From positions 1 to 42,725 of the forward strand of contig CAZIXY010000001.1 of the NCBI GenBank assembly GCA_964543315.1: a stretch of 42,725 bases of DNA, written 5' to 3'. Positions 1-38,994 of the stretch are shown one piece after another (positions within the stretch are counted from its first letter, which is position 1; every line of letters starts with the position of its first letter). The translations under genes and the position numbers were made by a program. Source of the DNA: an uncultured Desulfobacteraceae bacterium. GTDB lineage: Bacteria; Desulfobacterota; DSM-4660; Desulfatiglandales; Desulfatiglandaceae. Under the pieces are notes generated by a model. The model saw only the letters and a program-made list of their open reading frames with translations. It had not been told where the DNA came from and ran no database searches.

Positions 1-939
1 GATCGCCTCGCACTTTCTGAACGTGAGCCTGCCTTCCTTGTCGCATCCCTGTTCAATGGTGAAAATCGCCGGCTGCCTTGGAGGCAATGCCCGAAACTCT
101 TCCTCCCTGTCAAAAAGGATTTTTATCGGCTTCCGTGTCTTCAGGGCAAGCTGAATCGAAATGAATTCATAGATATCCGTATCAAGCTTGGTCCCGAAAC
201 TCCCTCCGACAATGGCATTGACAACCCTGATCTTTTTGCCCCTCAGTCCTATCTGGGAAAAATAATCCGTAATTCTCCCGATGTGTCCAAAAATGACGTT
301 TGTTTGATTGTAAAGGGTCAGGTTATTGTTATTATCGAACTCCGCAACGCACCCGCTCGTTCCCATGCAACACTGGTTTACCCAGGTTGTACTGACATTA
401 TCCTTCGTTATGTAAGCCGAATCCTTGCGGCCCTGCTCTATATCCCCGGCCGCAAATTTCCAAGGCAGTGGAAGTATGTTGCTCTTGACCGGTCTTCCTC
501 TGGCGTCTACCTCATGCACAAGCGGGGCGTCCTCCTTCATAGCCTCGAATGGATCAAACACGGCGGGCAGTTCCTCGTACTCCACCTCAATCAGATCCAC
601 CGCCTCCTCCGCGATCTCCGGAGTAATGGCCGCGACCGCGGCCACTTCGTCTCTGAACTGCCGCACCACATCCTTCTTGAGCACCGTTTGATCCTTGAGG
701 AATCCGACCCTGACGTCCGGGATATCCTGACCGGTCAAAACCGCCCTAACGCCAGCAAGCTTTTCCGCCTTGGAAGTATCAATGCTCTTTATCCTTGCGT
801 GTGCGTATTTGCTGTAAAGTATTTTTCCGTACAGCATCCCGGGGCGTTTTAAGTCATCAATATAGACCGCCTTGCCCGTTACTTTATCCGCTTCTATTGT
901 TCTTGGAACACTCTTTCCCACAAATAGATGATCAGACAT
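1..939 (-). CDS. Molybdopterin-binding large subunit of a xanthine dehydrogenase/aldehyde oxidoreductase-family Mo-hydroxylase (N-terminal 313 codons; the 3' end lies beyond the window)
   Basis: Absent from the ORF track because there is no stop inside the window. Manual minus-strand translation from ATG 939-937 gives MSDHLFVGKSVPRTIEADKVTGKAVYIDDLKRPGMLYGKILYSKYAHARIKSIDTSKAEKLAGVRAVLTGQDIPDVRVGF... The RBS is AGGAGG at 950-945 with a 5-nt spacer. The frame stays open to base 1. The N-terminus is typical of CoxL/XdhB/HcrA-like large subunits. The gene follows the FAD and 2Fe-2S subunit genes in the same operon. Confidence 0.85.
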   Translation of the reverse strand, partial: MSDHLFVGKSVPRTIEADKVTGKAVYIDDLKRPGMLYGKILYSKYAHARIKSIDTSKAEKLAGVRAVLTGQDIPDVRVGFLKDQTVLKKDVVRQFRDEVAAVAAITPEIAEEAVDLIEVEYEELPAVFDPFEAMKEDAPLVHEVDARGRPVKSNILPLPWKFAAGDIEQGRKDSAYITKDNVSTTWVNQCCMGTSGCVAEFDNNNNLTLYNQTNVIFGHIGRITDYFSQIGLRGKKIRVVNAIVGGSFGTKLDTDIYEFISIQLALKTRKPIKILFDREEEFRALPPRQPAIFTIEQGCDKEGRLTFRKCEAI

Positions 940-966
940 CTTATCCTCCTAGGGGTCTTTGCTTCT

Positions 967-1446
967 CTATTTCATCGTTTTGGCCGCCATCTCAATGGCC
1001 TCGACAATCTGAACGTATCCGGTGCAGCGACAAAAATTTCCCGCAATGCTTGTCCTTATGTCATTCTCCGTTACGTCTAAATTCTGATCCAAAAGAGCCT
1101 TTGCCGATAGAATCATCCCGGAGGTGCAATACCCGCACTGGACGCCATTGTTTTCAAGAAAGGCCGTCTGAATCGGGTGCAGCGTGCCGTCCTTCTCCGC
1201 GACTCCCTCAATCGTCGTTACCGACTTGCCTTCGATCTCATAAATGGGGTACAGGCATGAATTTACGGCGTCTCCATCAACGATAACCGTGCATGCGCCG
1301 CATTCACCCACACCACACCCTTTCTTGGCTCCGGTCAATTCAAAATACTCCCTCAATGTTTTTAAAAGTGACCAGGTAATAGGCACTTCGGCTGTTACGG
1401 GATCACCATTCAGGGTAAAAGAAACCGATACCTTTTTCATCTTCAA
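967..1446 (-). CDS. [2Fe-2S]-binding small subunit of the Mo-hydroxylase (CoxS/HcrC-like)
   Basis: 159 aa. It carries both classical cluster motifs: CGVGECGAC (plant-type) and CGYCTSG...CRCTGY. Confidence 0.95.
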   Translation of the reverse strand: MKMKKVSVSFTLNGDPVTAEVPITWSLLKTLREYFELTGAKKGCGVGECGACTVIVDGDAVNSCLYPIYEIEGKSVTTIEGVAEKDGTLHPIQTAFLENNGVQCGYCTSGMILSAKALLDQNLDVTENDIRTSIAGNFCRCTGYVQIVEAIEMAAKTMK

Positions 1447-1543
1447 CTCCTTTTATTGGTTTGATCGAGCAATTTCGAAATTAAAAGATCCGGGGATTTT
1501 TCAAGGGACAAACCCCGGATAAATACTTCCGGCTTGTGCGCCT

Positions 1544-2413
1544 TTAACGGTTCCCAATATTTTCAGCAGCAAGCCTTGCCATGCGAACCACATAGACTTC
1601 TATGATCTCCTTCCGATGCCATGCCAGACCCCGCAGGCTGTCCCTGAGTGAACAGCATTCCGGGGATGCCGAAATTTTGCCCGCCTCCCTTAAGACCTCA
1701 TCGGTTAAGGGCTTTCCTTTTAGGAACTCTTCGGCGTTGTACGCCCTGACCGGCGTTGGTGCGGCAACTGTCAGTGCGATTCTCGCGTCGGAAATCGTGT
1801 CCCCATCCAGGTTGAGAGACACGGCAATCCCCAACAGAGGGAGATTCATCGCCTTTCTTCTTGAGTGTTTCCAATAGGCGCTCCCGAAATGTTCCATTTT
1901 ACCGGGTATTTCAAACTCAACGAGGACCTCGTCTTGTTTCCGGGCAGTTTTATAGGTACCGGTAAAGAATTCGGAGAGGGGTACGCTCCTTCTTCCTTCC
2001 GGACCTTCCAAAATCACCTTGGCATCCAGCACCAGCAGCGGCCCTGCGGTATCCGCCGACGGAGCTGCATTACAGATATTCCCACCTATAGTCGCCACAT
2101 TCCTTATTTGTACCGATCCAATACGGGAGGCGCCTTCCTGCAAGGCGGTCAGTTCCGCTTTGACTAATGGCGACTGCTCCAACATCCTGTGAGTGGTCAG
2201 GGCCCCGATATGATACCCACCGTTTTTCTTAATATATCTGAGTTCCTTTATCCCTACCAGGGAAATCAAAACCTCCGGAGCCTTCTTCGTGTTCCTGATC
2301 TTGACCATCACATCGGTTCCCCCTGCAATCAGAGCCGCCTTTTTTCCATACTTCTTCAAAAGGCTGAATACCTCTTCCAAACTCTCAGGCTTTTCATAAT
2401 CATATTCAATCAT
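1544..2413 (-). CDS. FAD-binding medium subunit of the Mo-hydroxylase (CoxM-like)
   Basis: 289 aa. Contains LIAGGTDVMVKIR and ATIGGNICNAAPSAD, typical of the PCMH-type FAD domain of the xanthine dehydrogenase family. There is no extra Cys-rich insertion. Confidence 0.9.
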   Translation of the reverse strand: MIEYDYEKPESLEEVFSLLKKYGKKAALIAGGTDVMVKIRNTKKAPEVLISLVGIKELRYIKKNGGYHIGALTTHRMLEQSPLVKAELTALQEGASRIGSVQIRNVATIGGNICNAAPSADTAGPLLVLDAKVILEGPEGRRSVPLSEFFTGTYKTARKQDEVLVEFEIPGKMEHFGSAYWKHSRRKAMNLPLLGIAVSLNLDGDTISDARIALTVAAPTPVRAYNAEEFLKGKPLTDEVLREAGKISASPECCSLRDSLRGLAWHRKEIIEVYVVRMARLAAENIGNR

Positions 2414-2487
2414 TTCTAAACCCCCTCATCAGGACAAGCATGTCTGCGTGCTGCGCACAGGTAGGCCGGTAAATCAGCAATCCAAAT

Positions 2488-3780
2488 CTAATCTTCCCTG
2501 TTATCAAAGACCCGCTTGCTCTTTCGTTCCGATCTCGGTAAAGATCCGTAGTCAACCAGTTCAATGGAGCCACTTACCATAATTTGTTTTTTTATTTCTC
2601 CGGCTATTTTCTTTGCCAAATTCTCATCCTGACTGCCGTCAAAGCCCTTTTCACGTTCCACCTTCACCGTCATATAATCCTTGCCGTCGGACTTTCTTTC
2701 CAGGATAATCTGATATTCACTCCCGATCCCTTCGATCCCCGACAAAACATGATCAACCTGTCCCGGATAGATATTGACGGCACGAAAGATGATCATATCA
2801 TCGGAACGGCCCAACAGACGATCATGCCTTGGTAGAATAGATCCGCAGGGACACTGACCGGGAATCAATCGGGTCAGGTCCCTTGTCCGGTAGCGAATCA
2901 GGGGGGCTGCTTCCTTTTTCAAGGTTGTCACCACCATTTCCCCTGTCTCCCCTTCGGGCACGGGCTCGAGTGTCTCCGGATCCAGGATCTCAAGTATATA
3001 ATAATCGGCCCAGTAGTGGATTCCCGTGTGGTGGACACAGTCCAATCCTGTTCCGGGGCCGTAAAGCTCGGTCATTCCCGGGATGTCGAACAAATGTTCG
3101 ATACCCAAAAGCTCTTTAACCTGATCTCTCATGGCATCACTGGACCGCTCTGATCCAAAGATCATTTTCTTGACATGTATCTTATCCCTGATGTCGCGCC
3201 TGTACACCTCTTCGGCCATCAGCAATCCCATAGAGGCGGTACAGCACATAACCGTGGTCTGGAAGTCTCGCAGGAACTGGCACTGCATATCCATATTGCC
3301 GGGACCCGCCGGAATGGCCATGGCGCCAAATTCCTCGCATCCCAGCTGGAAACCGGCACCGGCCGTCCACACACCATACCCAACCGCAATTTGAACCCGG
3401 TCTTCGAGTGTCAAACCGGCCATTTCATAACAGCGCGCAAAAAAATGGGTCCAATCCTGAATATCCTTCTGGGTATAGCAAAGGACCTTCCTCTTTCCTG
3501 TTGTGCCGGACGACGCGTGAATGCGTACGACCTTTTCAAACGGCACGGAAAGAAGCGGGAAAGGATAACCTTCCTGAAGATCCTTGGATGTCGTGAATGG
3601 CAATCTCCCGATATCATCGAGGGATTGGATATCCCCGGGTCCGACGCCCGCGCCGTCCATCTTTTTCTTGTAGAACGGGGATCCGTTATAGGCATGGTTC
3701 AAGGTCCACTTTAGTCCTTCAAGCTGCAGTTCCTTCAACTCATCCTGAGTTGCCACTGTGGGCATGAATGTCTTTTTCAT
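2488..3780 (-). CDS. Phenylacetate-CoA ligase family (PaaK/IaaB-like aryl-acetate CoA ligase)
   Basis: The ORF spans 2488-3861. The likely start is ATG 3780 (MKKTFMPTVATQDELKELQLEGLKW...), preceded by GGGGTGA. It has the SSGTTGK P-loop and a PaaK-like N-terminus and length (~430 aa). Confidence 0.9.
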   Translation of the reverse strand: MKKTFMPTVATQDELKELQLEGLKWTLNHAYNGSPFYKKKMDGAGVGPGDIQSLDDIGRLPFTTSKDLQEGYPFPLLSVPFEKVVRIHASSGTTGKRKVLCYTQKDIQDWTHFFARCYEMAGLTLEDRVQIAVGYGVWTAGAGFQLGCEEFGAMAIPAGPGNMDMQCQFLRDFQTTVMCCTASMGLLMAEEVYRRDIRDKIHVKKMIFGSERSSDAMRDQVKELLGIEHLFDIPGMTELYGPGTGLDCVHHTGIHYWADYYILEILDPETLEPVPEGETGEMVVTTLKKEAAPLIRYRTRDLTRLIPGQCPCGSILPRHDRLLGRSDDMIIFRAVNIYPGQVDHVLSGIEGIGSEYQIILERKSDGKDYMTVKVEREKGFDGSQDENLAKKIAGEIKKQIMVSGSIELVDYGSLPRSERKSKRVFDNRED

Positions 3781-3877
3781 TGATTCTTTCACCCCTATGC
3801 CAAAAGCAGACAAAATGTCATTTTCCTTTCTTTTATTGTTTTCGCGTGCGTCAGGACGCATGCGTAGAATGATCTAT

Positions 3878-5182
3878 TTAATGTGCCATATTTGGTATAA
3901 TCAATACTATTTGAGGAAAAATAATTAATAGTATAATACAGACAATACAGGCCGCCAGAAAAAAACTGACGCTCTTGAAAATTGTTCCGAGCTCCACTTC
4001 CGGCGCCAATGCCTTGACAACATAAATATTAACACCCACCGGTGGCGTAATGGCGCCCATTGTCGTCACCATTGTCAGGATTATGGAGTACCATATTGGG
4101 TCAAAACCAAGGGCCATTCCCAGTGGAAAAAAAATAGGAACCGTCAGAACCAGAAATCCCAACGAATCTACAAAACAGCCACCAATCAGGTAGATCACTA
4201 GCACAAACGCCAGAATGACATATGGAGATACCGGCAGGCCGGATGCAAATTCTGCAATCATAAAAGGGAGCCTGGTTACCGCCAAGAAACGGCCGAAAAT
4301 AATGGCACCCGTCACAAGGAAAAAGACCATCGCGGATATCTTCAGTGTTTCAATCACGGAATTGGCAAAGCCTTTCCATGTGATCCTGCGCTGTGCAACG
4401 GTCACAACAAGTGTAAAAAAAACACCTACCGCCCCGGCTTCCGTAGGGGTGAATATGCCTAAATACAGACCCCCGATAATCAGAATAAATATAATGACTG
4501 CTTCAACGACCCCTGTAAGTGATTTTATCTTATCCTTTAAATGTGACCTTGGGCCTTCCGGGCCATATTTCGGATTGATTCGACAGAGGACAAAGATGGT
4601 GAGCACAAAAAGACTCCCCAGGATAATAGCGGGCAGAATACCGCCGAGGAAGAGTTTGATAATGGATTGCTCTGTTTGCAGACCTATAACAATGAGGACC
4701 ACACTGGGAGGCATAACCGTCCCCAGGGTGCCTCCTGTGACGATGGTGCCGCTGCTCAACATGTCGTCATAATCATACTTTTGCATCTGTGGAAGAGCCA
4801 CTTTCCCCATGGTAGCAGCGGTGGCCGTATTGGAGCCGCAGATTGCAGCAAAAAGCTCATCAGCGCCTATTGTGGCTATAGCCAGCCCTCCGCGCCAATG
4901 ACCAAACCACTTATAGGCCGTATTATAAAGTCTGTCAGCGATACCCGAGTTGAATGCGAGATATCCCAGAAATATGAAAAGTGGTACAACCGTGAGGCCG
5001 TAACTGGAAAACGTGGACCAGATATCGTTTCCCACCATGTTAACAGCTGCCTGGAAAGAGACCACATACCAGAATCCGCAGAAACCCACAATGCCCATAG
5101 CAAAACCAACAGGCATGCCCAAAAAAAATAGAACCGCAAGGAGGATAATGATCCCGATAATGCCGGTCAGAGTTAAACTCAC
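3878..5182 (-). CDS. TRAP transporter large permease (DctM family)
   Basis: 434 aa, highly hydrophobic multi-span protein. It overlaps the upstream small-permease gene by 4 nt. Confidence 0.9.
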   Translation of the reverse strand: MSLTLTGIIGIIILLAVLFFLGMPVGFAMGIVGFCGFWYVVSFQAAVNMVGNDIWSTFSSYGLTVVPLFIFLGYLAFNSGIADRLYNTAYKWFGHWRGGLAIATIGADELFAAICGSNTATAATMGKVALPQMQKYDYDDMLSSGTIVTGGTLGTVMPPSVVLIVIGLQTEQSIIKLFLGGILPAIILGSLFVLTIFVLCRINPKYGPEGPRSHLKDKIKSLTGVVEAVIIFILIIGGLYLGIFTPTEAGAVGVFFTLVVTVAQRRITWKGFANSVIETLKISAMVFFLVTGAIIFGRFLAVTRLPFMIAEFASGLPVSPYVILAFVLVIYLIGGCFVDSLGFLVLTVPIFFPLGMALGFDPIWYSIILTMVTTMGAITPPVGVNIYVVKALAPEVELGTIFKSVSFFLAACIVCIILLIIFPQIVLIIPNMAH

Positions 5183-5670
5183 CTTTCCTCCTCCCCTGTT
5201 TTAAATATGGTCTCCAAAAATTGTGTTAAAAAAACCAGGGAGAGCGCAGCGCACCCCAAGGCGGCCCCGTAAGTAAAAGGGTAGTAAATGATTAGAAGGG
5301 TCTCGGTAACCTGTCCTGTCTCCCGAAGGATGTTTGCATATTTGGCTATTTGCACTGCCGCCACGCAGAAAAAGATCATACAGATTATGCTGTTTATACT
5401 ATGAAGAATCCTTTGGATTTTCTTTGAGAACCCCAGTACTAGAATATCAACAGAGATATGCCCCTTCCTGATTTGGGTGTACCCCAGAGCAAAAGCAGTT
5501 ACAATAGCTCCAAAGTAGCCCATCAGTTCATAAGTTCCTCTGATCGGTCCCCATATTAGTCGAAGAAAAATATTCGCGCACGTCAATACGATCATTGCCG
5601 ATAAAAAAACTCCGGCTATCCACATCAGAATCTGATTGACTACCCTGCAAAAATTTTCAAGGAACGCCAT
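5179..5670 (-). CDS. TRAP transporter small permease (DctQ family)
   Basis: 163 aa, four predicted TM helices. It sits between the DctP-like and DctM-like genes. Confidence 0.85.
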   Translation of the reverse strand: MAFLENFCRVVNQILMWIAGVFLSAMIVLTCANIFLRLIWGPIRGTYELMGYFGAIVTAFALGYTQIRKGHISVDILVLGFSKKIQRILHSINSIICMIFFCVAAVQIAKYANILRETGQVTETLLIIYYPFTYGAALGCAALSLVFLTQFLETIFKTGEEER

Positions 5671-5775
5671 CCCCTACTCCAATCCTTATCAAAACATAAA
5701 AGCTAGACCTGCATAACTCATGACCATTTTAATCCGTAATAAGCATCCGCTTATAAACCAGGGTTAAATATTTTT

Positions 5776-5821
5776 AGGTGGCTGCACAAAAAGGCGTATA
5801 ACCTCTTTAGTGCAACCACCT
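5776..5821 (-). other. Intercistronic stem-loop between the TRAP binding-protein and permease genes
   Basis: AGGTGGCTGCAC (5776-5787) pairs with GTGCAACCACCT (5810-5821), 11 of 12 positions. It lies immediately 3' of the dctP-like stop on the minus strand. It could be a partial terminator or an mRNA stabiliser that raises the binding protein to permease ratio. Confidence 0.4.
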
Positions 5822-5826
5822 TTTTT

Positions 5827-6852
5827 TTACTGACCGGAATACATTTTTGTAAATCCGACAATATCATCAACAATGGCTTTAGCCGGAAAGCCTTTGGCTT
5901 TAGCATCCGCAATCCACTTTCCCGTAATGGGCTTGAGCAAATTATCCCATTTATCTTTTTCCGTTTTTGAAAGTTGGATCACTTCAACGTTATGGGTTTT
6001 TTTCGACCACGCCATGGATTCATTTACATGATTATCCATATAGACACCCGTCCATGCCGACTGCTGGGGACCCAGCTCTTCCAATACCTTTTTGACATCC
6101 TGTGGCAGGCTGTTCCATTTTTTCATATTCATGACAACAGCAAAGGGGATAACACCAACGTTGATCATTGTCACATAACGGCATAACTCGGCAAATTTGA
6201 AATCCTTCATGACTTCCAAGGATGAGATCAGTCCTTTGACGGTTCCTTTTTGAAGTGCTTCCGGTGTTTGGGGCATCGGCATTCCTACAGGATTACCACC
6301 CAGGGTCTTGAGCACCACACCGGCACTTCCGGGAGCTCTAAGATCTAATCCTTTTAGGTCGGCAAGGTTCCTTACCGGAACTTTGCTCATAATATTAAAA
6401 GGTGCCGTGGTGAACATCGTAAGGACCTTTACTTTTTCAAACGCTTTCGGTTGGTACTTTTTATAAAGATCCCATAAGACAAGGCTTGAAACCGTTGCAC
6501 TTGGGGGATTAAGCGGCAGGGCAGTGGCGTTTGTCACAACAAACCTGCCCGGCTGGTATGCCATGCACAGGCAACCTATATCAGCGGTGCCTGCAATCAC
6601 TCCATCCATCATAGCCTTAGCCTTAAGCAGGGTCCCTCCCGGGAATGTCTTAATGGCGACCTTTCCATTGGTACGTTTTTCGACCTCCTTTTTCCACCTC
6701 TCCATCTGGACACATGGGAAAGTTGGAGCAGGTGGGAAGTTGGCATAATTCAGTTTGATCGGCGCCGCCGCGGCCGGCGCGGACATCCAGGTTATTGCAA
6801 AAACCATTGCTAAAAAAACTCCTGCCAGTATAAATCCTATTTTTCGTCTCAT
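5827..6852 (-). CDS. TRAP transporter periplasmic substrate-binding protein (DctP family)
   Basis: 341 aa. N-terminal signal peptide (ILAGVFLAMVFAITWMSAPAAAA). DctP-like sequence and operon context. Confidence 0.9.
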   Translation of the reverse strand: MRRKIGFILAGVFLAMVFAITWMSAPAAAAPIKLNYANFPPAPTFPCVQMERWKKEVEKRTNGKVAIKTFPGGTLLKAKAMMDGVIAGTADIGCLCMAYQPGRFVVTNATALPLNPPSATVSSLVLWDLYKKYQPKAFEKVKVLTMFTTAPFNIMSKVPVRNLADLKGLDLRAPGSAGVVLKTLGGNPVGMPMPQTPEALQKGTVKGLISSLEVMKDFKFAELCRYVTMINVGVIPFAVVMNMKKWNSLPQDVKKVLEELGPQQSAWTGVYMDNHVNESMAWSKKTHNVEVIQLSKTEKDKWDNLLKPITGKWIADAKAKGFPAKAIVDDIVGFTKMYSGQ

Positions 6853-6976
6853 GTCTCAGACCTCCTTATTGATGGAAAACCCGTTAACTTCATCGTCACG
6901 ATAAATTCTCCTTTCACCCCCTTTCTCTCACATTCAAAATCTTAAAGATTTACTGTTTGCTAAATCCGCTCCTCAT

Positions 6977-8605
6977 TTAAAAGATACTCGGCTCCGCATA
7001 TTCTCCGTAGACATCCCTGAAAACATCTGCCATTTCCCCAACAGTTGCATAGCACTTACAGCACTCAACCAAACAGGGCATAACATTCTTCTTTTCCCCG
7101 GCCGTTTTTTCAAGTGCCTTAAGGGATTCCTTAACGGCCTTATTGTCCCTGTCCCTTTTCAGCTCCTTGAGCCGGTCGATCTGCAATCGCTCCCATTCCT
7201 CGTTGTGCTCGTGGAGTTCCACCTCCATGTCGACACCTTCCGTAAATTTGTTCACGCCGACCTTTGTAACCTTTCCCTCCTGGATGTTTTTCTCAAACTC
7301 GTATGCCTGTTTCGCCACTTCTCTCTGCACATACCCCGAGGAAACAGCCTCGACCATACCGCCGGCTTTTTCCACTTTTGCCATCTCTTCCAGTATCTTT
7401 TCTTCCATTTCCTTTGTCAGGGTTTCAATGAAATAAGAGCCCGCAAGGGGATCCACGGTGTCCCTGAGCCCGATTTCATCCATAAGTATTTGAAAGGTTC
7501 GCAGGGATAACAGGGCGGCCCTTTCCGTGGGGATAGTATAGGCCTCGTCAAAGGAACAGAGTGCCGTGGTCTGTGCTCCGGATAGTGCCGCTCCAAGCGC
7601 GTAGTAGGCACCTCGCATGATATTATTTTCCGGCTGCTGCTTGGTCATCCCCGAGCCCCCTCCTCCGAAAATTCCGCGGAGAAAAAGGGCCTTTTTGTTC
7701 TGGACATCATATCTTTCCCTGAGTAACCTTGCCCACAGTTTGCGGGCGGCACGAAACTTTGCCACGGTCTCCCACAGGTTGCCGTAAATATTCAGGTTGA
7801 AAGAAAATCTTCCCACAAAGTCCTCAGCCTTGAACCCCCTGGCCACAACATTGTCAATATATGCGAAGGCGATCATCAATGCGTAGGAAATTTCCTGGGC
7901 CGGTGAACACCCCGATTCCCTGATGTGGTATCCCGCCACCGAAACCGGATTGCACCTCGGCAACTCCTTCATGGAGTACTCTATGGTATCGCCAATGAGT
8001 CGTACAGCCGGCTCAACGGGATAGATCCAGGCGCCTCGTCCGACGATTTCCTTAAGTATATCGTTCTGCGGTGTTGCTGAAATCTCTTCCTTCTTGTATC
8101 CGAATTTTTCAGCCACAGCCTGATACATGGCCAGCATAACGGAGGCAACGGCGTTGATGGTCAGTCCCGTCCCGATACGGTTGAGCTGGATATCCTTGAA
8201 CGCCATTTCAAAATCCTTGAGCGAATCGATTGCCATGCCCACGCGACCCACCTCGCCTTCGGCCATGGGATTATCAGAGTCATAACCCATCTGCGTGGGC
8301 AGGTCGAATGCCACGTTAAGCCCGGTCTGCCCGTGAGAAATCATGAGTTTGAACCGTTCGTTTGTCTCCTCGGGTGTGCCGAAACCCGTGTACTGGCGGG
8401 TGGTCCAGTTTCGACTTCTGAATCCAAGAGGGTGAATGGCGCGGGTAAAGGGAAATTCACCGGGATCCGCGAGATCCTTTTCATAATCAAAACCCACCCT
8501 TTCAAGGTCCTCCGGGGTATAAACCGGCTTAACCTTTATGCCCGACTGGAGGATGACTTCTTTAATGGCATCCTTTTCATCTTTTATGTAAGTTGCGACT
8601 CCCAT
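6977..8605 (-). CDS. Acyl-CoA mutase large (substrate-binding) subunit, methylmalonyl-CoA mutase family
   Basis: The ORF spans 6977-8698. The likely start is ATG 8605 (MGVATYIKDEK...), 16 nt after the stop of the B12-binding subunit gene. Conserved MCM-family blocks are present: RNWTTRQYTGFGT, GLNVAFDLPTQMGYDSDNP, NDILKE. Confidence 0.9.
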   Translation of the reverse strand: MGVATYIKDEKDAIKEVILQSGIKVKPVYTPEDLERVGFDYEKDLADPGEFPFTRAIHPLGFRSRNWTTRQYTGFGTPEETNERFKLMISHGQTGLNVAFDLPTQMGYDSDNPMAEGEVGRVGMAIDSLKDFEMAFKDIQLNRIGTGLTINAVASVMLAMYQAVAEKFGYKKEEISATPQNDILKEIVGRGAWIYPVEPAVRLIGDTIEYSMKELPRCNPVSVAGYHIRESGCSPAQEISYALMIAFAYIDNVVARGFKAEDFVGRFSFNLNIYGNLWETVAKFRAARKLWARLLRERYDVQNKKALFLRGIFGGGGSGMTKQQPENNIMRGAYYALGAALSGAQTTALCSFDEAYTIPTERAALLSLRTFQILMDEIGLRDTVDPLAGSYFIETLTKEMEEKILEEMAKVEKAGGMVEAVSSGYVQREVAKQAYEFEKNIQEGKVTKVGVNKFTEGVDMEVELHEHNEEWERLQIDRLKELKRDRDNKAVKESLKALEKTAGEKKNVMPCLVECCKCYATVGEMADVFRDVYGEYAEPSIF

Positions 8606-8621
8606 AAGTACCTCGAATGTT

Positions 8622-9020
8622 TTAATTTGATGCGTTTTCTTTAATAAAGTCCACAATATCCTGGAAATAACTGCCGCCGGGAAAGATCCCGCTGACACCT
8701 ATATCCTTGAGAGTGAGAACATCTTTATTCGGGATCACGCCTCCCACAACGACCAGTTTATTCCCTATGTCCTGCTCCTTGACAATTTTCATGAGTTTTT
8801 TGCAGATTGGAATATGGGCACCGGACATAATGGAAAGACCAATAACATCAACATCTTCTTGTATGGCCTGGTTAACTATGCCGGGAACTGTTTGATGAAG
8901 CCCGGTGTAAATGACTTCCATTCCAGCCTCCCTCATCGCATGCGCAACAACTTTGGCTCCCCTGTCGTGGCCGTCCAGCCCCGGTTTGGCCAGAAGCACC
9001 CTTATTTTTCTTTCTCCCAT
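8622..9020 (-). CDS. Acyl-CoA mutase small subunit, cobalamin-binding domain
   Basis: 132 aa. It carries the DxHxxG base-off/His-on motif (GLDGHDRGAKV) and a B12-binding Rossmann-like fold. Confidence 0.92.
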   Translation of the reverse strand: MGERKIRVLLAKPGLDGHDRGAKVVAHAMREAGMEVIYTGLHQTVPGIVNQAIQEDVDVIGLSIMSGAHIPICKKLMKIVKEQDIGNKLVVVGGVIPNKDVLTLKDIGVSGIFPGGSYFQDIVDFIKENASN

Positions 9021-9145
9021 TTATTTTCACTCCCGTAAATATATATACAGCCTTCACGTAAACATTATCGCAGTCAATGGCAGCGCTTCCTTTCCATGAT
9101 GCGCGGTCTGAGTCATCGTAAAATGTGCATCAAAGATAATAGTCC

Positions 9146-9862
9146 CTATTTCATGTCTTGTATATCAAATTCCTTTAGGACAACCTCCTGCCCCCTCAGG
9201 ATATGCTCCTTGACCAGGCTTTCCACCCTGTCGGAGTCTCTTTTTCTGATGTACTTGAGCATCAGTCTGTGATCACGGTTACTCGTCCTGGCCATGCTCT
9301 CCACCTCCAGGATGACCTGCCTGAAACGATAGATCTGGTCTTTCAGGTCATTGATTATTTTAATCAACCTGGGACTCTGGCTCAGGGCATAGAGAAGATC
9401 GTGAAATTCCGTATTGACCCGCAACAGGGTTTTTTTATCCCCCCTATCGAGATATTTTTGGTATTCGGCGATCTTTTCATCTAAAGGTGCGAGATCTTCC
9501 TCCCGGTGCTTGATGGCCGCGAGTCTGGCCGCATAACTCTCCAAAACGCTGCGAATGCCGAAGGTTTCCTCGATGTCAGCCTTTGTTAACCCGGCCACGA
9601 AGAAACCTCCTGCAGGATTTTTGCGGAGCAGGCTTTCCCGCTCCAGCTTGTGAATCGCTTCCCTTACAGGGGTCCGGCTGATTCCCAAGGCATCTGCCAC
9701 ACGAATTTCCACCAAACGACTTTCAGGGGCAAGATCACCTCTGACAATAGCCCTCTTGAGGCTCTCATAGACATTCTGGCCAAGCGACCTTCTCTCGGGT
9801 AACGCCTTTAATGTCTTGAAATAGGAATTTTCTATTTGTTGATTTCCTCTCACTCCGGCCAT
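9146..9862 (-). CDS. GntR-family transcriptional regulator (FadR/FCD-type C-terminal domain)
   Basis: 238 aa. N-terminal winged helix (VYESLKRAIVRGDLAPESRLVEIRVADALGISRTPVREAIHKLE) followed by an all-helical C-terminal domain. Confidence 0.9.
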   Translation of the reverse strand: MAGVRGNQQIENSYFKTLKALPERRSLGQNVYESLKRAIVRGDLAPESRLVEIRVADALGISRTPVREAIHKLERESLLRKNPAGGFFVAGLTKADIEETFGIRSVLESYAARLAAIKHREEDLAPLDEKIAEYQKYLDRGDKKTLLRVNTEFHDLLYALSQSPRLIKIINDLKDQIYRFRQVILEVESMARTSNRDHRLMLKYIRKRDSDRVESLVKEHILRGQEVVLKEFDIQDMK

Positions 9863-10032
9863 ATCGTCTTAAAACATCCGCTCCTGAAAAACGGGAATCC
9901 CTGGTACAAAATAATTGATTTTATCGGAGGTTGTTTCCTGTCTTGGGGTTCAGGTTTCCATCTGTGGTACCCGGAACCTGCTTTGTCAAAAAAAATGACC
10001 TCCATTCTGTTAACTCCAATTCGGAATGCTCA

Positions 10033-11220
10033 CTATATGACCTTATTTTCCTTGAGACGAGCCAGGTCATCATCCGAGTACCCCAGTGCGCCGTAAATTT
10101 CCTTATTTTGTTCCCCGAAACGCGGCGGAAAAGAAAGCTTTCGGTCCAGTTGTTCCAGAAATGGGGTCATATTGGGCGGGGGTGGCAAGAGTATTTTTTT
10201 CCCGGTGACCGGATCCTGTGAAGACAACAGCCTTCTTTCGACCAAGGGATCGGCGATCACCTCCGGAATGGTCTTTATTTTGCTTATGGGAAGCGTAAGG
10301 GAGTTGAATAGGTCAATCAGCTCTTCGGACGTGTGGTTTTTGGTAATATCGCTTATCTCGCGGTTCAAATTCTGCACGTCCCCTATTCGGCCGGCGTTTT
10401 TGTCGTATTCCGGCTTGTCCAGATGCTTGAACATCTCCAGGGATACCATGGATTTCCACTGCCGGTCATTTCCCACGGCCATGTAGACAAATCCATTGCT
10501 CGTCTGATAGACGGAAACCGGACAGAAAAATTCGTGGGTGTTGCCCCTGCGAGTTATCGCCTTATTGAAAAGCGTGGATAGGGTTATGGGCACCGTCATC
10601 CATGATACGGAAGATTCAAACATGGACATGTTGATACAAGACCCCTCCCCTGTTGCCTCTCTCTTGAATAGGGCCTTCATCAGGAGTCCATAGGAATGTT
10701 CGCTTGTTCCCATATCCGGAAGTGGGATGCCGACCACCTGGGGGTCTCCGTCAGCCTCGCCGGTCAGATCCATCATGCCCGATCTCGCCTGAAGGATTGG
10801 ATCATATGCCGCCTCATTGCTGTCGGGACCGAAACCGGTAACGCCGAGCCATATGATATCCGGTTTCAAGGCCTTCATGGACTCGTAATCAACTCCCAGC
10901 TTTTTATAGTTCCTGGGAAGCTGGTTGGTCGCAAAGATATCCACATGGAGTTCTTCAATCAGAGAATGGAATATCTTCTGCCCTTCCTGGTCACCCAAAT
11001 TCAATGTGAGTGCCTCTTTGCCTGAATTTATGCACAGGTAATAGGCGTTCATCCTCTCCTCTCCAAGCACATTGTCACCTATTAGCCTGTTCGGATCCCC
11101 GTATACAGGATGTTCAAGTCGGATAACCCGCATGCCGTCTTGCGCCAGCCTGTAAGTCAAATAGGGCAGGACAGTCGCCTGTTCAAGAGATAATACGGTA
11201 ATGTTTTTGAAAAAATCCAT
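10033..11220 (-). CDS. Family III CoA-transferase (CaiB/BaiF/Frc family; BbsEF/IaaL-like)
   Basis: 395 aa. Typical N-terminus (ITVLSLEQATVLPYLTYRLAQDGMRVIRLEHP) and typical length. Confidence 0.9.
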   Translation of the reverse strand: MDFFKNITVLSLEQATVLPYLTYRLAQDGMRVIRLEHPVYGDPNRLIGDNVLGEERMNAYYLCINSGKEALTLNLGDQEGQKIFHSLIEELHVDIFATNQLPRNYKKLGVDYESMKALKPDIIWLGVTGFGPDSNEAAYDPILQARSGMMDLTGEADGDPQVVGIPLPDMGTSEHSYGLLMKALFKREATGEGSCINMSMFESSVSWMTVPITLSTLFNKAITRRGNTHEFFCPVSVYQTSNGFVYMAVGNDRQWKSMVSLEMFKHLDKPEYDKNAGRIGDVQNLNREISDITKNHTSEELIDLFNSLTLPISKIKTIPEVIADPLVERRLLSSQDPVTGKKILLPPPPNMTPFLEQLDRKLSFPPRFGEQNKEIYGALGYSDDDLARLKENKVI

Positions 11221-11337
11221 GATTTCCCCCTTTCGGGCCGGAGGCCAGGAATAATAATGGGTTGGTGTTTAATGAAGGGCAACTTCAAATAAGCTTTTCA
11301 AGCATTTGTGTACTGTATACAATATGCACTGTCAAGG
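11149..11337. repeat. Copy A of a duplicated segment: CoA-transferase 5' codons, 5'-UTR and promoter
   Basis: Aligns by eye with 18083-18269 in the same orientation, roughly 80% identity. The pair includes a perfectly identical 33-bp block (11305-11337 = 18237-18269). Confidence 0.85.
11307..11335 (-). promoter_or_regulatory. Putative sigma70 promoter of the catabolic operon with an embedded palindromic operator
   Basis: On the minus strand: perfect -35 TTGACA (11335-11330), a 17-nt spacer, and -10 TACACA (11312-11307). The 8-bp palindrome TGTATACA (11314-11321) lies in the spacer. The start codon is ~85 nt downstream. Confidence 0.5.
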
Positions 11338-11427
11338 AATTTTTCCCCGGAAAATTAACGGATGCCACCATTTTTGGATACAAAACAAGGTAGCTGGTCT
11401 TGGCTGGAAAAAACCGCCTTAATGCAG

Positions 11428-11841
11428 TCATTGACAGGGGCTTTGGTAGGGTCCTAATTTTTTAATCTCGCTGGTAAAGTCATTGATTACCCGGGCAAAT
11501 TTTAATCCTTCTGCCGCGGAGAGCCATTCAAGTCTTATCCTTCTGTTATCTATCCCCAACTGGGTGATCAAATTCTTTAAGAGCATTATCCTTCTTCGAG
11601 CCTTGTAATTACCAGCCTGGTAATGGCAGCTTCCCAAGTCTCAACCTCCAACAAAAACACCATCCGCCCCCAAATTAAATGCCTCAGTGATATGTAAGGG
11701 GTCAACGGCTCCCGAGCACATTACCCTGATTATCCTCAAGTTGGCAGGGTATCGGATGCGGCTTGTTCCCGCCAGATCTGCCGCCCTATAGACACACCAA
11801 TTGCAACAAAAACCCACAATTTTCGGTTCAAATGTATTCAC
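11428..11841 (-). CDS. mvhD: MvhD-type hydrogenase/heterodisulfide-reductase-associated [2Fe-2S] subunit, selenocysteine-containing (in-frame TGA at 11643-11641)
   Basis: ORFs 11641-11919 and 11428-11637 are in the same frame, separated only by TGA. The joined sequence reads ...[45 protein letters not shown]...[27 protein letters not shown]. This matches the MvhD consensus ...VGGCHxGDCHY with the first Cys replaced by TGA. The likely start is GTG 11841 (GAAGG RBS 7 nt upstream), giving [16 protein letters not shown] 11877 and the track's upstream start at 11919 (apparently non-ATG by my reading) are alternatives. Confidence 0.8.
11608..11624 (-). promoter_or_regulatory. Candidate bacterial SECIS hairpin for the mvhD UGA
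   Basis: The mRNA reads UGA-GACUUGGGAAGCUGCC-AUUACC-AGGCU-GGUAAU. This is a 6-bp stem (extendable by GCC/GGC) with a G-rich 5-nt loop. The stem starts 16 nt (17th base) after the UGA. Confidence 0.5.
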
Positions 11842-12090
11842 GGTTTTACCTTCTTTATATCTTGCACAAATTTGCATATTAGGGTAAGGGCAGGTGTGTG
11901 TCAATCTCAAATCTATCAATACGTTTCCAGGAAAAAGCTCTGTTCAGTTAGCTCTATCATTCCTGTGTTTGATGTGATAGCAAAAAAATCGTATCAGTTC
12001 ATAGGTTCAGAGTACTGATTTCACCGAAAGCCCGCATATTCTTCTGCGCGCAGGTCTGAACCTGGGAATACCTAAGACAAGGAGATGGAA

Positions 12091-13071
12091 ATGGCTAAGC
12101 CAAAGATCGCCTTTTATTCATGTGCTTCATGTGGAGGGTGTGAGGAAGCAGTCATTAACCTTGATGAAGATATACTGAACGTGGCGGATGCTGTGGATAT
12201 CATACAATGGCCTACGATCCTGGATTTTAAGAGGAAGGATCTTGAAGCCTTGGGAGATGGTGAGATAGTGGTGAGCTTCATAAATGGAGCAGTAAGGCTC
12301 GGTGAACAGGAGGAAATGGTAAATCTCTTAAGGCAAAAGTCTCAGCTCATAGTCGCCTTTGGTTCTTGTGCTCATTTGGGAGGGATACCGGGTCTGGGTA
12401 ACCTCTACACGAGGGATGCGATTTTACAAAGGATTTATAAGGAAGTCCCGACTGTTGAAAATCCAGAGGGAATTATTCCACAGGAGAGGACAACCATTGA
12501 TACTGGCGAGCTCACTCTGCCGGAGTTTTATGATACGGTAAAGACCTTGGGTCAGGTCATCCCGGTGGATTACTACCTTCCCGGGTGTCCACCGCCTTCT
12601 CACTTGATAATGAGTGCGTTAAGTGCATTTCTTAAGGGTGAATTACCGGAAAAGGGGGCAGTGCTTGCTCCTGGTAAACCTTTATGTGATACCTGCCCCA
12701 GGGCGGAGGAAAGACGGGGGGGAGTATCAATACAGGAAATAAAAAGACCACACGAAATTAAACTCAGCCCCTGGAAGTGTTTTCTTGAGCAGGGGATAAT
12801 CTGCCTTGGTTCGGTTACCCGCTCAGGGTGCGGAGAAAGGTGCATTAAAGCTAATATGCCGTGCAGGGGGTGTATGGGTCCTGCCGAAGGGACTGTAGAT
12901 CAAGGGATAAAAGCCCTTTCAGTTATTGCATCCATATTGGGACTTGAAGGAGAAGAAGGGATGACAGAGGAAGAGGTTAAAAAATTACTCGATGGCATTG
13001 AAGACCCGGCAGGGACATTTTACAGATTCAGCATGCCCACTTCTCTCCTTATAAGAAGGAAAATGAAATAG
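12091..13071 (+). CDS. mvhG: [NiFe] hydrogenase small subunit, Mvh/group-3c type (MvhG-like)
   Basis: The ORF starts at 12085, but ATG 12091 has better spacing to AAGGAG. The N-terminus KIAFYSCASCGGCEE, plus GSCAHLGG and LPGCPPP, provide the proximal-cluster cysteines. CDTCP, the CFLEQGIIC segment and CGERCIKANMPCRGC supply further Fe-S ligands. Confidence 0.88.
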   Translation: MAKPKIAFYSCASCGGCEEAVINLDEDILNVADAVDIIQWPTILDFKRKDLEALGDGEIVVSFINGAVRLGEQEEMVNLLRQKSQLIVAFGSCAHLGGIPGLGNLYTRDAILQRIYKEVPTVENPEGIIPQERTTIDTGELTLPEFYDTVKTLGQVIPVDYYLPGCPPPSHLIMSALSAFLKGELPEKGAVLAPGKPLCDTCPRAEERRGGVSIQEIKRPHEIKLSPWKCFLEQGIICLGSVTRSGCGERCIKANMPCRGCMGPAEGTVDQGIKALSVIASILGLEGEEGMTEEEVKKLLDGIEDPAGTFYRFSMPTSLLIRRKMK

Positions 13072-14488: not shown

Positions 14489-15493
14489 CTACCCTCCAAG
14501 TAATGCCTTACACTCCTCGATTAATGGGGGCAAAACCTTTCGATAATCTGCGATTACTCCAAGATCAGAGACCTTAAACATACCTGCATCAGAATCCTTA
14601 TTTATTGCCACTATAAGCTTTGACTCCGAGCAGCCGGCAATATGCTGCGATGCGCCACGTATCCCGACTGCAATATAAAGGTCAGGCTTTACAGTCTTGC
14701 CTGAATCTCCAATTACCATACTTGTTGTGGGCACCCAGCCTTCATCATAAGGCACCGTCGTTGTACCTACAGCACCCCCTAATATCTTGGCAAAATCTTG
14801 AAGAAGCTGAAAGCCCTCAGCATCGCCAATTCCTCCTCCGCCGGCAATTATTACCTTAGCGTCCTCGATCTTTATTCCTTCCACCTCTTCTTTTGTTGTG
14901 CTCACCAATTTGGTTCTTATTACTGAATCATCTATTGTCACCTTGATATTTTCGACTTCGCCCTTTCTTGAGCTATCGGGTTCAAGTGGTGTCATGGCCC
15001 TTGGTTTTATAGTTGCCAACTGCGGCCGGGAATCTTTGGAAACCATCTCTGCAATAGCATTCCCGCCGTAAACCGACCGGGTCTGAACCAAAGTTTTGCT
15101 ATCCGGATCCATATCAACATTAATGCAGTTCATGAAAGGGAAGCACCCTAATCTAAAAGCTACCCTGCCAGCTACATCGCGTCCCATAGTTGTGTGCCCT
15201 AATAAAACAACAGACGGCCCTATTTGCTGACAAGCCTGGGTAATTGCAGCGGTATAGCTATCGGGGTTGTACTCGGACAGCAAGGGGTCATCTGCCAGAT
15301 AGACATTATCCGCCCCATAGAGGATAGCTTCCTCACCGCTTTCCCGAATATCGCTTCCTATGATGAGTGCGCTTAAGTTTCCGTCAAGTCCTTCGGCCAG
15401 CATTTTCCCGACACCCAGCAATTCCTTAGTAATTGCTGTAATCTTCCCCTCTTCCTGTTCTCCGCAGATCAGCACTGCACTATTTTGAGCCAT
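14489..15493 (-). CDS. etfA: Electron transfer flavoprotein alpha subunit
   Basis: 334 aa. C-terminal FAD-binding signature PDLYIAVGIRGASQHIAG. It sits immediately downstream of etfB. Confidence 0.93.
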   Translation of the reverse strand: MAQNSAVLICGEQEEGKITAITKELLGVGKMLAEGLDGNLSALIIGSDIRESGEEAILYGADNVYLADDPLLSEYNPDSYTAAITQACQQIGPSVVLLGHTTMGRDVAGRVAFRLGCFPFMNCINVDMDPDSKTLVQTRSVYGGNAIAEMVSKDSRPQLATIKPRAMTPLEPDSSRKGEVENIKVTIDDSVIRTKLVSTTKEEVEGIKIEDAKVIIAGGGGIGDAEGFQLLQDFAKILGGAVGTTTVPYDEGWVPTTSMVIGDSGKTVKPDLYIAVGIRGASQHIAGCSESKLIVAINKDSDAGMFKVSDLGVIADYRKVLPPLIEECKALLGG

Positions 15494-15508
15494 TCGATTC
15501 CTCCTTTT

Positions 15509-16306
15509 TTATATCACTCCGGCCGCTCTCAGCTTCGCTGCCAGATTTCCAGCGACCTCCTCCGGAGCTTCGCCACCGATGATTTCACATTTTCTTCCTC
15601 GCTCAGGGATAGAGAGTTTCAGCAGGTTAGATCCTTCGGCACTTGCTCCGATGAGGGAGACATCAGCATTAATATCCTGATTTGACCAAACCGGAATTTC
15701 CTTACGCACTGCACTTACGATACCCATTCCAGTGGGTAGGCGAGGCAAGCCAATCTCATTGCTCACAGTCAGTACTGCCGGCAGGGAGACCTCAAATACC
15801 TGATGGCCGTCTGGAATTGTTCTTTCAACCTTTAAAAGATTATCATCTAATAGTTCAATATCTTTGGCTAAGCTAATGTGAGGCAGATTTAGTCTCTCGG
15901 CTAAGACGGCGCCGACTGTGCCCATACTCCAATCAGCTGCTTCCCTCCCGCACAAGACCAGGTCAAAGGCATCAATTTTCTGTATTGCCTGGGCCAGGAT
16001 ATAAGCTGTAGCAAGGCTGTCCGAACCCGCAAACGCATCATCATACAGGACAATTCCCTCATCAGCCCCCATGGCCAAAGCACGCCTGACCACCTCTTTA
16101 GACTCATCAGTTCCTACGGTTATTGCTGTTATCTTGCCTCCATGTTTTTCCTTGACTCGCAGCGCAGCCTCTACTGCTTGAGCGTCATAAGGATTCATCA
16201 CTAATGGTATTCCCTCAGGTGGAATCACCTGGTTATCCTTAAGCCTAAATTTTTCCGTCGGCATCTCGGGGTCCAGGACTTGCTTAACGCATACCACAAT
16301 ATTCAT
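15509..16306 (-). CDS. etfB: Electron transfer flavoprotein beta subunit
   Basis: 265 aa. It has the N-terminus MNIVVCVKQVLDP characteristic of EtfB/FixA. Confidence 0.93.
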   Translation of the reverse strand: MNIVVCVKQVLDPEMPTEKFRLKDNQVIPPEGIPLVMNPYDAQAVEAALRVKEKHGGKITAITVGTDESKEVVRRALAMGADEGIVLYDDAFAGSDSLATAYILAQAIQKIDAFDLVLCGREAADWSMGTVGAVLAERLNLPHISLAKDIELLDDNLLKVERTIPDGHQVFEVSLPAVLTVSNEIGLPRLPTGMGIVSAVRKEIPVWSNQDINADVSLIGASAEGSNLLKLSIPERGRKCEIIGGEAPEEVAGNLAAKLRAAGVI

Positions 16307-16347
16307 TTCTCTTTCCTCCTTACCATTTTCCGGTATTCCAATATTCT

Positions 16348-16366
16348 CCCCGCTGCTTCAGCGGGG
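16348..16366 (-). other. Intercistronic hairpin between the acyl-CoA dehydrogenase gene and etfB
   Basis: CCCCGCTG-CTT-CAGCGGGG forms a perfect 8-bp GC-rich stem. It lies within the 136-nt gap between 16443 and 16306. Confidence 0.4.
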
Positions 16367-16442
16367 ATGAGCAAAGCGAACTATCTTGCTTCAGACCTCT
16401 ATGTGGTTGAGAAGTTGATTGGTTAATTTGACGATCTCTGTA

Positions 16443-17597: not shown

Positions 17598-17617
17598 TCT
17601 TTATGCCTCCAAGTATT

Positions 17618-18013
17618 TTAGTCCTTCTGGACAAGCTCAACAAGGATGCCATGAGTCCCCTTGGGGTGAAGAAAGGCGCTTAATCCCTCGGCACCGGGCA
17701 TCGGCTTTCCCAGGGCATCAATCCCTTTATCCTTAAGCGAACCAATTTCCGCGTTGATATCATCCACCTCATAGCAGACATGTTGTATACCCTCACCGCG
17801 CTTTTCCAGGAATCTGGATATCGGTCCATCTTTGCCAACAGGCTCTAAGAGCTCAACAGTAGCATTCTCTAACTCCACCATGCTTACCCTAACCGTTCCT
17901 CCTCCTCCAATTATTGGTTCAGACGATTCAAGCCCAAAGACCGAACGATAAAACTCCCTGGCTTCCTCAAGGTCTTTTACTGCCATACCCAGATGACTAA
18001 TCGCTTTTAGCAT
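17618..18013 (-). CDS. Methylmalonyl-CoA epimerase-like VOC (glyoxalase-fold) protein
   Basis: 131 aa. Sequence features HLGMAV...ELLEP...FLEKRGEGIQHVCYEV...ILVELVQ are typical of methylmalonyl-CoA epimerases. Confidence 0.85.
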   Translation of the reverse strand: MLKAISHLGMAVKDLEEAREFYRSVFGLESSEPIIGGGGTVRVSMVELENATVELLEPVGKDGPISRFLEKRGEGIQHVCYEVDDINAEIGSLKDKGIDALGKPMPGAEGLSAFLHPKGTHGILVELVQKD

Positions 18014-18037: not shown

Positions 18038-18151
18038 TCAATTATGCGGAGAATATATATGAAAATAAGGTTTTTGTGTCAATCCGTAAGCCAAGTATGG
18101 TAACAAAGTTGCCTGCTCAAGAGACAATACGGTGATTTTTTTGGGATCCAT
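18038..18151 (-). pseudogene. Relic 5' fragment of a family III CoA-transferase gene (first ~26 codons, then unrelated tail and stop)
   Basis: From ATG 18151 the sequence reads MDPKKITVLSLEQATLLPYLAYGLTQ. Compare MDFFKNITVLSLEQATVLPYLTYRLAQ of the full gene at 11220. Homology ends after ~26 codons and the frame stops at 18038. Confidence 0.8.
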
Positions 18152-22168: not shown

Positions 22169-22228
22169 AGCGTCTTCTCCACATTAAATCACTTATTTTT
22201 TGTTCATATTAAAATCTTAAATGGGCAC

Positions 22229-23380: not shown

Positions 23381-23422
23381 ATCTGCCTCACTAAGTCCCT
23401 TAAAATCTGATATCCCGGCTGG

Positions 23423-38948: not shown

Positions 38949-38994
38949 GGCATGGTTTTTAAAAATATAATGAAAATGAACAACGGAGGAGAAA

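Follow-up and report, generated by a model that had tools for sequence, protein, structure and literature searches.

A rearranged iaa-type operon, probably for anaerobic catabolism of indole-3-acetate, in an uncultured Desulfobacteraceae bacterium

Described iaa clusters and the locus of this study

In this study, we analyzed a minus-strand operon at positions 1–11220 of a DNA stretch of 42,725 nt (hereafter the window), which is the whole contig C1 of a metagenome-assembled genome (MAG; G000, 484 contigs, 88% complete) of an uncultured Desulfobacteraceae bacterium, and compared it with the iaa clusters described for anaerobic catabolism of indole-3-acetate (IAA). This compound is a plant hormone (auxin) and is commonly formed when tryptophan is fermented anaerobically. 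The Aromatoleum iaa cluster reportedly includes a three-subunit molybdenum (Mo) hydroxylase, and IaaM-dependent uptake is an ABC-type system. In Aromatoleum aromaticum EbN1 and A. evansii KB740, the cluster encodes a PaaK-type ligase (IaaB), a family III CoA-transferase (IaaL), a split B12-dependent mutase (IaaGH), binding-protein-dependent uptake via IaaM, a transcriptional regulator, and a hydantoinase-type lactamase (PMC5214803). The latter, a hydantoinase-type pair, is the 2-oxoindoleacetyl-CoA lactamase of the pathway (PMC5214803).

A further type is known from strict anaerobes, namely Desulfatiglans anilini, strain NaphS2, other sulfate reducers, and Ferroglobus placidus, whose iaa operons carry an additional electron-transferring flavoprotein (ETF; PMC8360864). 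Replacement of the motif YEG by GGG is the signature of IaaF, an acyl-CoA dehydrogenase (ACAD) that acts as decarboxylating benzylmalonyl-CoA dehydrogenase, and every member of the IaaF clade is encoded in iaa operons; re-oxidation of IaaF is the pathway step whose electron acceptor is still unknown (PMC8360864).

Based on the comparison given below, region 1–11220 is probably a rearranged iaa-type operon of sulfate-reducing Desulfobacterota, serving the anaerobic catabolism of IAA or a very close indolic acid. Its upper pathway, from uptake to the mutase step, is well supported by orthology; the substrate, every catalytic step, and regulation by the GntR protein are predictions drawn from homology. 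An earlier note on this DNA had recognized a resemblance to the iaa pathway from the gene inventory. The likeness goes beyond a shared inventory, as shown by orthology and collinearity with an operon of the lineage. In kind the cluster is ordinary, a rearranged member of an already described pathway family.

Orthology with a recurring operon of Desulfobacterota

Gene families were assigned by Pfam for all genes and by NCBIfam with its curated equivalog cut-offs. Homologs of the ligase were surveyed in 20 genomes of the phylum together with 20 kb of surrounding DNA, and IaaF-like ACADs in 80 species genomes with up to 10 kb on each side. At least 34 Desulfobacterota loci of at least 15 kb revealed one recurring operon with the gene order CoA-transferase, EtfB, EtfA with an N-terminal ferredoxin domain (EtfA(Fd)), ACAD with the GGG motif, GntR regulator, small and large mutase subunits, DctPQM, ligase, FAD, [2Fe-2S], and large subunits of the Mo-hydroxylase, and HyuA-HyuB. 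Among these, DctPQM, a tripartite ATP-independent periplasmic (TRAP) transporter, is often present, and HyuA-HyuB occurs in many loci. The window proteins reached top identities to these loci of 85% (CoA-transferase), 80% (GntR), 94% (large mutase subunit), 87% (ligase), and 86% ([2Fe-2S] subunit). In a genome of the same family (G140; L046/L066), the entire string lies in one piece on one strand, and cultured Desulfosarcina ovata (AP021879) harbors a compact version with genes for EtfB, EtfA(Fd), an IaaF-like ACAD, both mutase subunits, HydAB, and the Mo-hydroxylase.

The ACAD of these operons ends in RFLLYGGGTHEV (...LLYGGGTHEV), displaying GGG at the YEG site. Since a GGG ACAD and an extra ETF are found together as described for strict anaerobes (PMC8360864), the lineage operon belongs to the strict-anaerobe iaa type, and the window cluster, as its ortholog, would therefore be iaa-type as well. 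The resemblance claimed from the inventory has thus gained in substance, with 80–94% identity and collinearity to a Desulfobacterota operon that bears a GGG ACAD in most relatives.

The window shares highly similar, collinear orthologs with the strict-anaerobe type. Unlike that type, it has no EtfB, EtfA(Fd), and IaaF genes between those for CoA-transferase and GntR, its hyuAB genes are detached, and a duplicated promoter heads a non-orthologous epimerase-ACAD-ETF operon near mvh-like genes. All functions of the Aromatoleum cluster cited above from PMC5214803 are matched here, but uptake is by TRAP and not via IaaM, a GGG dehydrogenase and beta-oxidation genes are missing, and the hydantoinase genes lie 26 kb off on the opposite strand. 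TRAP instead of ABC uptake had also been named as a difference by the earlier note; a TRAP system is indeed present, but it is the norm in this lineage and not peculiar to the window.

A profile scan of genome contigs with an alignment of IaaF-like proteins led to 80 loci, all of them in Desulfobacterota MAGs and none in Aromatoleum. In a plasmid collection searched for the reference Iaa proteins, all matches were at or below 33%, and the clusters looked up for representative ACADs contained no accession from the literature. Protein-library searches for relatives of the ACADs listed the nearest 120–150 matches; among those listed for a Desulfatiglandaceae IaaF-like protein, Desulfosarcina ovata was reached and strain NaphS2 was not.

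A related arrangement was observed in a Desulfobacteraceae genome (L005, CP070700, 7108–17971), which harbors mvhGA, mvhD, a CoA-transferase (84%), a mutase (91%), and a different Mo-hydroxylase (32–48%), but no ligase, TRAP, GntR, or ACAD genes. Based on this layout, the core of CoA-transferase, mutase, and mvh-like genes seems to recombine with different front-end modules.

Genes of the operon and predicted pathway

All 11 genes that had been named for the operon (CoA-transferase, GntR regulator, split mutase, transporter, ligase, and three-subunit Mo-hydroxylase) were recovered by Pfam between 11220 and 1 on the minus strand, with families as named. Their reading frames and those of hyuAB are intact and 80–94% identical to orthologs. 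The first gene codes for a family III CoA-transferase in the position of IaaL (10033–11220; CoA_transf_3, 245 bits), which heads the same operon in about 30 relatives at 64–93% identity. It is followed by a GntR/FCD regulator (9146–9862; Pfam GntR and FCD), which shares 65–80% identity with the GntR protein encoded at this place in relatives, and by the B12-dependent acyl-CoA mutase in the position of IaaG/H. The small B12-binding subunit of the mutase is located at 8622–9020 (Pfam B12-binding; TIGR00640, 141 bits) and the large subunit of 542 aa at 6977–8605 (MM_CoA_mutase, 600 bits; 86–94% to in-operon orthologs); the open reading frame of the latter extends to 8698, and orthologs favor ATG at 8605 as the likely start. 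At the family level, the CoA-transferase and split mutase genes are collinear with, and 64–94% identical to, genes of GGG-ACAD operons.

The TRAP transporter genes, assigned by Pfam, span 3878–6852 (DctP 5827–6852, DctQ 5179–5670, and DctM 3878–5182, all on the minus strand). The PaaK-type aryl-acetate-CoA ligase in the position of IaaB (2488–3780; AMP-binding and AMP-binding_C_2) has a longest open reading frame reaching 3861, but orthologs align from residue ~27, so that its start is likely the ATG at 3780 (430 aa); with the PaaK model it scored 407 bits against a cut-off of 646. The Mo-hydroxylase is encoded by genes for a FAD subunit of 289 aa (1544–2413; FAD_binding_5 and CO_deh_flav_C), a [2Fe-2S] subunit (967–1446; Fer2_2 and Fer2; 82–86% to in-operon orthologs), and the N-terminal 313 aa of a large subunit of the XDH family (1–939; Ald_Xan_dh_C and MoCoBD_1).

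A reading of the Mo enzyme as 4-hydroxybenzoyl-CoA reductase (HcrABC) was rejected on account of the short FAD subunit and of scores below threshold. The FAD subunit is ~32 residues short of the 321-position HcrB model (TIGR03195), which it matched in two separate stretches with 143 bits (cut-off 405), compared with 254 bits for an XdhB-like model. For the L046 ortholog of the Mo subunit, the Hcr alpha-subunit model gave 543 bits against a cut-off of 995.

In the predicted pathway, DctPQM would import the acid, the ligase would form its CoA thioester, and the Mo-hydroxylase would oxidize indole C2, after which the detached HyuA/HyuB would open the lactam with ATP to give (2-aminophenyl)succinyl-CoA. 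The CoA-transferase would shift CoA between both carboxyls, and the mutase would produce (2-aminobenzyl)malonyl-CoA. With less confidence, we assign the IaaF step to the neighboring epimerase, an ACAD with the motif LGG, and EtfBA. The genes for beta-oxidation to 2-aminobenzoyl-CoA and for reduction of the ring would be expected in other parts of the genome. A BamA/Oah homolog of this genome narrowly exceeds the TIGR03200 cut-off (468.6 vs 464.45), which is consistent with an organism that can process a benzoyl-CoA-type product further.

The detached hyuAB genes and the contig end

The pair lies on the plus strand at 36852–40719, with HyuA at 36852–38948 and HyuB at 38995–40719, and is of the ATP-dependent lactamase type (Pfam Hydantoinase_A and Hydantoinase_B). 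The earlier note was right to connect it with the cluster, as the proteins share 82/81% identity with the in-operon HyuA/HyuB of G140 (L046) and 76/73% with those of D. ovata, and by these identities they are true orthologs of the in-operon pair. Three other hydantoinase paralogs in the genome reached only 30–39% to it. By analogy with the published pair, HyuA/HyuB is a candidate 2-oxoindoleacetyl-CoA lactamase. The closest characterized family is the caprolactamase CapA/CapB (NF050156/NF050157), which shares the same two-subunit ATP-dependent lactamase architecture. HyuA and HyuB scored 536 and 241 bits with these models, far under the cut-offs (1000), and thus the substrates of both enzymes seem to differ.

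Downstream of HyuB, we identified a gene of the cysteine desulfurase family (40839–42143, plus strand; TIGR01977, 437 bits, cut-off 377), also resembling selenocysteine lyases, which follows 3' of HyuB in the in-line operon of G140 as well (76%). It may provide the hydroxylase with the sulfido or seleno ligand of its Mo cofactor. Since hyuAB is orthologous and the downstream gene was kept, a rearrangement seems to have split the string between the Mo subunit and hyuA.

The contig end truncates the large Mo subunit at residue 313, and the C-terminal 474 aa were found on another contig of the assembly, C161, likewise at its end (L012:6107-7528, minus strand). An ortholog in a second genome (L006) spans both pieces (C1:939-1 at 84% and C161:7528-6524 at 82%), from which we infer that both contigs join; their ends do not overlap, and about seven codons are absent between the pieces. 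As C161 continues downstream of the Mo subunit into a XylR_N/V4R/PAS/LuxR regulator, a SerA-like gene, and a PALP enzyme, the operon seems to end with the Mo subunit. A mere loss of the hydantoinase genes at the contig end was ruled out by the same three genes.

The regulator on C161 (L012 3804–5837, minus strand, 678 aa) displays XylR_N ('activator of aromatic catabolism'), V4R, two PAS domains, and a LuxR-type helix-turn-helix. A gene for a 50%-identical regulator adjoins the Mo-hydroxylase/ligase/TRAP module of a further genome of the same family (G260, L047). It may be a second, effector-sensing regulator of this module.

The duplicated promoter region with a candidate operator

Upstream of the CoA-transferase gene, a promoter-like region with a candidate GntR-type operator and a leader (copy A, 11223–11350, minus strand) was detected by alignment as a member of repeat family D1. 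A second copy with promoter, operator, leader, and a CoA-transferase remnant (copy B, 18083–18282, minus strand; repeat alignment) heads the epimerase operon. Positions 11223–11350 and 18155–18282 are 86% identical over 128 nt without gaps. Both copies share an identical TTGACA...TGTATACA block, in which TGTATACA lies inside the promoter spacer, and the TTGACA...CATATTGTATACAGTAC block, identical in both, was found nowhere else in the window; the operator 17-mer has exactly two occurrences there. While this palindrome-bearing block is identical, the flanks have diverged. The similarity runs on through the leader and the first ~26 CoA-transferase codons, which are a dead remnant in copy B. Thus, the claim that both operons share one promoter/operator has to be modified: the block is identical, but the epimerase operon stands under a separate, duplicated copy.

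Among 46 relatives, 27 revealed TTGACA followed by GTATAC ~14 nt on upstream of the CoA-transferase, and this architecture is missing in the GntR-less loci L005, L006, L089, L118, L120, L129, and L131. Since it is missing where the GntR gene is missing, the TTGACA-GTATAC element fits a candidate GntR operator, whereby related genomes are not independent observations. A scan for consensus promoters and terminators gave no more sites than in shuffled sequence and did not define transcription units.

The mvhD/G/A-like genes are located between the iaa-type operon and the epimerase operon. In L006, a gene for an enoyl-CoA hydratase is found where copy B stands in the window, and thus the copy-B wiring seems to be recent and local.

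The epimerase-ACAD-ETF module

The second operon (14489–18013, minus strand; Pfam) encodes an epimerase (17618–18013), the ACAD P0001 (16443–17597), EtfB (15509–16306), and EtfA (14489–15493). The glyoxalase-fold epimerase passes the methylmalonyl-CoA epimerase model TIGR03081 (121.6 bits, cut-off 114.95). P0001 shows LGG at the YEG site, i.e., Gly at the MCAD-type Glu position, and Ala at the IVD-type Glu position. Its identity to the IaaF-like proteins encoded by relatives is 34%. The earlier note had linked this operon to the cluster through the promoter; the ACAD, however, is not an IaaF ortholog, as its motif is LGG and not GGG and the protein falls outside the clade encoded in iaa operons. 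Like IaaF (PMC8360864), P0001 is devoid of the catalytic YEG Glu; it also has no IVD-type Glu and is encoded with its own ETF. It differs from IaaF by the LGG motif, the neighboring epimerase, and its presence in genomes without iaa genes.

LGG ACADs are 77–91% identical across Desulfobacterota, Dehalococcoidia, and Aminicenantes among the matches listed. In a library of 1.8 billion proteins clustered at 50%, P0001 has one full-length neighbor above 50%, the next reaching 44%, likewise among the matches listed. At all six loci inspected, the LGG ACAD gene follows directly 3' of an epimerase gene and precedes ETF genes, usually with FixCX. On a Dehalococcoidia contig, the epimerase-ACAD pair stands directly 3' of a mutase gene. 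The LGG type was not found in four genomes of the same family (97–99% complete), including G140, which has the IaaF type.

Since the mutase product is a 2-substituted malonyl-CoA, and since an epimerase and an ACAD unable to abstract the C2 proton suit a decarboxylating dehydrogenation, we tentatively propose, within the reading as an iaa-type operon and at somewhat less than even probability, that the IaaF step passed to the LGG module, which the promoter duplication brought under the control of the operon. The wider idea that the LGG family forms a second, unrecognized class of decarboxylating 2-carboxyacyl-CoA (alkyl-/arylmalonyl-CoA) dehydrogenases, which here replaced IaaF and its ETF under a duplicated iaa promoter/operator, is rather unlikely on present comparisons. 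In that case, electrons might leave the module through the adjacent Mvh-like iron-sulfur proteins.

Further arrangements were observed around such genes. The Dehalococcoidia contig (L146, ENA ERZ27296366 k141_1949352, 1–12316) encodes a large Mo-hydroxylase subunit, a B12-binding subunit, succinyl-CoA-synthetase-like alpha/beta subunits, a family I CoA-transferase, a large mutase subunit, an epimerase, an LGG ACAD (81% to that of the window), FixC, FixX, and EtfBA, i.e., an operon from another phylum that follows a similar logic in a different layout. In D. ovata (L152, AP021879, 21109 onward), a gene with glyoxalase/epimerase fold begins right after the Mo-hydroxylase genes of the iaa-type cluster; from this layout, the epimerase may be a more general accessory of iaa-type operons. 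The window itself harbors two more ACAD genes and an IclR regulator gene at 20963–24217 (minus strand), and these ACADs cluster with neither the IaaF-like nor the LGG proteins.

Evidence against the assignment and rival explanations

Several findings weigh against the assignment of the cluster to IAA catabolism. It was linked to iaa by way of published descriptions and a single motif. None of the 11 operon genes passes an NCBIfam equivalog cut-off, which counts for the ligase and the Mo subunits in particular. Of 300 genomes sampled from the phylum, roughly 120 harbor the PaaK subfamily of the ligase at 52–81% identity, and judged from this distribution the ligase alone is not a specific marker. 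Within the window, Pfam detected no hydratase, 3-hydroxyacyl-CoA dehydrogenase, or thiolase gene, just as the earlier note had stated, and the window search revealed no operator copy upstream of hyuA. The EtfB-EtfA(Fd)-IaaF segment is absent, the gap between the CoA-transferase and GntR genes being 170 bp without a gene. P0001 belongs to a separate long-stemmed clade (SH-aLRT 100), apart from the IaaF-like proteins, which form their own clade (quick tree). LGG ACADs also occur in other phyla without any iaa gene, so that their function may be a general one. G000 revealed no ACAD of the IaaF type, its closest match to an IaaF-like protein reaching 37%; as the assembly is 88% complete, the gene could lie on DNA missing from it.

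Evidence on the substrate comes from the TRAP binding protein. In the PDB, DctP matched 4N6D (Desal_3247 by its entry title) with 398 bits and 4PGN, 4PGP, and 4NAP (the last titled Dde_0634 of D. alaskensis G20) with 325 bits, far above any other match. It is ~50–60% identical to the solved proteins over the full length and about 50% to Dde_0634. Its AlphaFold model (pLDDT 87.5) reached Z scores of 43.6 with 4N6D and 40.8 with 4NAP at a root-mean-square deviation of 1.6–2.3 over 308–312 residues; the next structural matches were aromatic-acid TRAP proteins (TarP with coumarate, ferulate, or 4-hydroxyphenylacetate). Thus, DctP shares fold and full-length homology with the Dde_0634/Desal_3247-type binding proteins of Desulfovibrio-type bacteria. 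The ligands of Dde_0634 reportedly include D-tryptophan and indolepyruvate besides IAA. Passages in PMC9973260 and PMC9543091, both citing Vetting 2015, refer to it as an IAA-binding protein.

The same enzyme logic might therefore act on a substrate other than free IAA, i.e., another aryl- or N-heteroaryl-acetate or a related acid, such as indolepyruvate- or tryptophan-derived acids, oxindole-acetate, or another 3-substituted N-heterocycle. We regard this as improbable. In its favor speak the ligands named above for Dde_0634, the closest ligand-characterized relative of DctP and crystallized in several entries (4NAP, 4PGN, 4PGP), the identity of only ~50–60% between DctP and the solved proteins, the wide spread of the ligase subfamily, and the equivalog scores below cut-off. 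However, the combination of Mo-hydroxylase, ATP-dependent lactamase, succinyl-type CoA-transferase, mutase, and, in the relatives, GGG ACAD has so far been described only for the indoleacetyl skeleton (PMC8360864, PMC5214803). A variant fed by indolepyruvate would still run via indoleacetyl-CoA, and the window contains no iorAB gene.

The absence of the EtfBA-IaaF segment and the separation of hyuAB could also mean that the pathway is decaying or partial and no longer supports complete degradation, the epimerase-ACAD-ETF operon then being an unrelated general alkylmalonyl-/acyl-CoA module and the promoter copy having arisen as a side effect of the rearrangement. Such decay would agree with LGG modules in Aminicenantes and other phyla, where they stand with FixCX-Etf and without iaa genes, with the distance of the LGG clade from the IaaF-like proteins, with the hydratase gene of L006 at the place of copy B, and with the different region upstream of HyuA. 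We give it a slim chance, however, as all 11 genes and hyuAB have remained intact and the promoter block including its palindrome is identical in both copies despite the diverged flanks. Furthermore, L006 shares the IaaF-less operon adjoining an LGG module at only 82–91% identity, so that this arrangement has persisted, and the Dehalococcoidia operon joins mutase, epimerase, and LGG ACAD directly.

Occurrence and meaning of the operon type

Near-identical DNA was found in hydrothermal-vent and marine-sediment metagenomes. Because the operon type is frequent in marine and hydrothermal sediments, we suggest that uncultured sulfate reducers may be regular consumers of IAA. Within the preferred reading as an iaa-type operon, the window variant offers a natural experiment, in which another type of dehydrogenase, encoded with an epimerase and an ETF of its own, apparently carries out the IaaF step. 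This makes the LGG proteins an enzyme family worth assaying, as a possible non-orthologous replacement of IaaF.

Finally, two separate iaa-type clusters of one Desulfatiglandaceae MAG (JBAPTR01; L078 and L129) each encode a GGG paralog, with identities of 89% and 74% to the protein of G140. This pair recalls the three IaaF paralogs listed for Desulfocarbo indianensis (PMC8360864).

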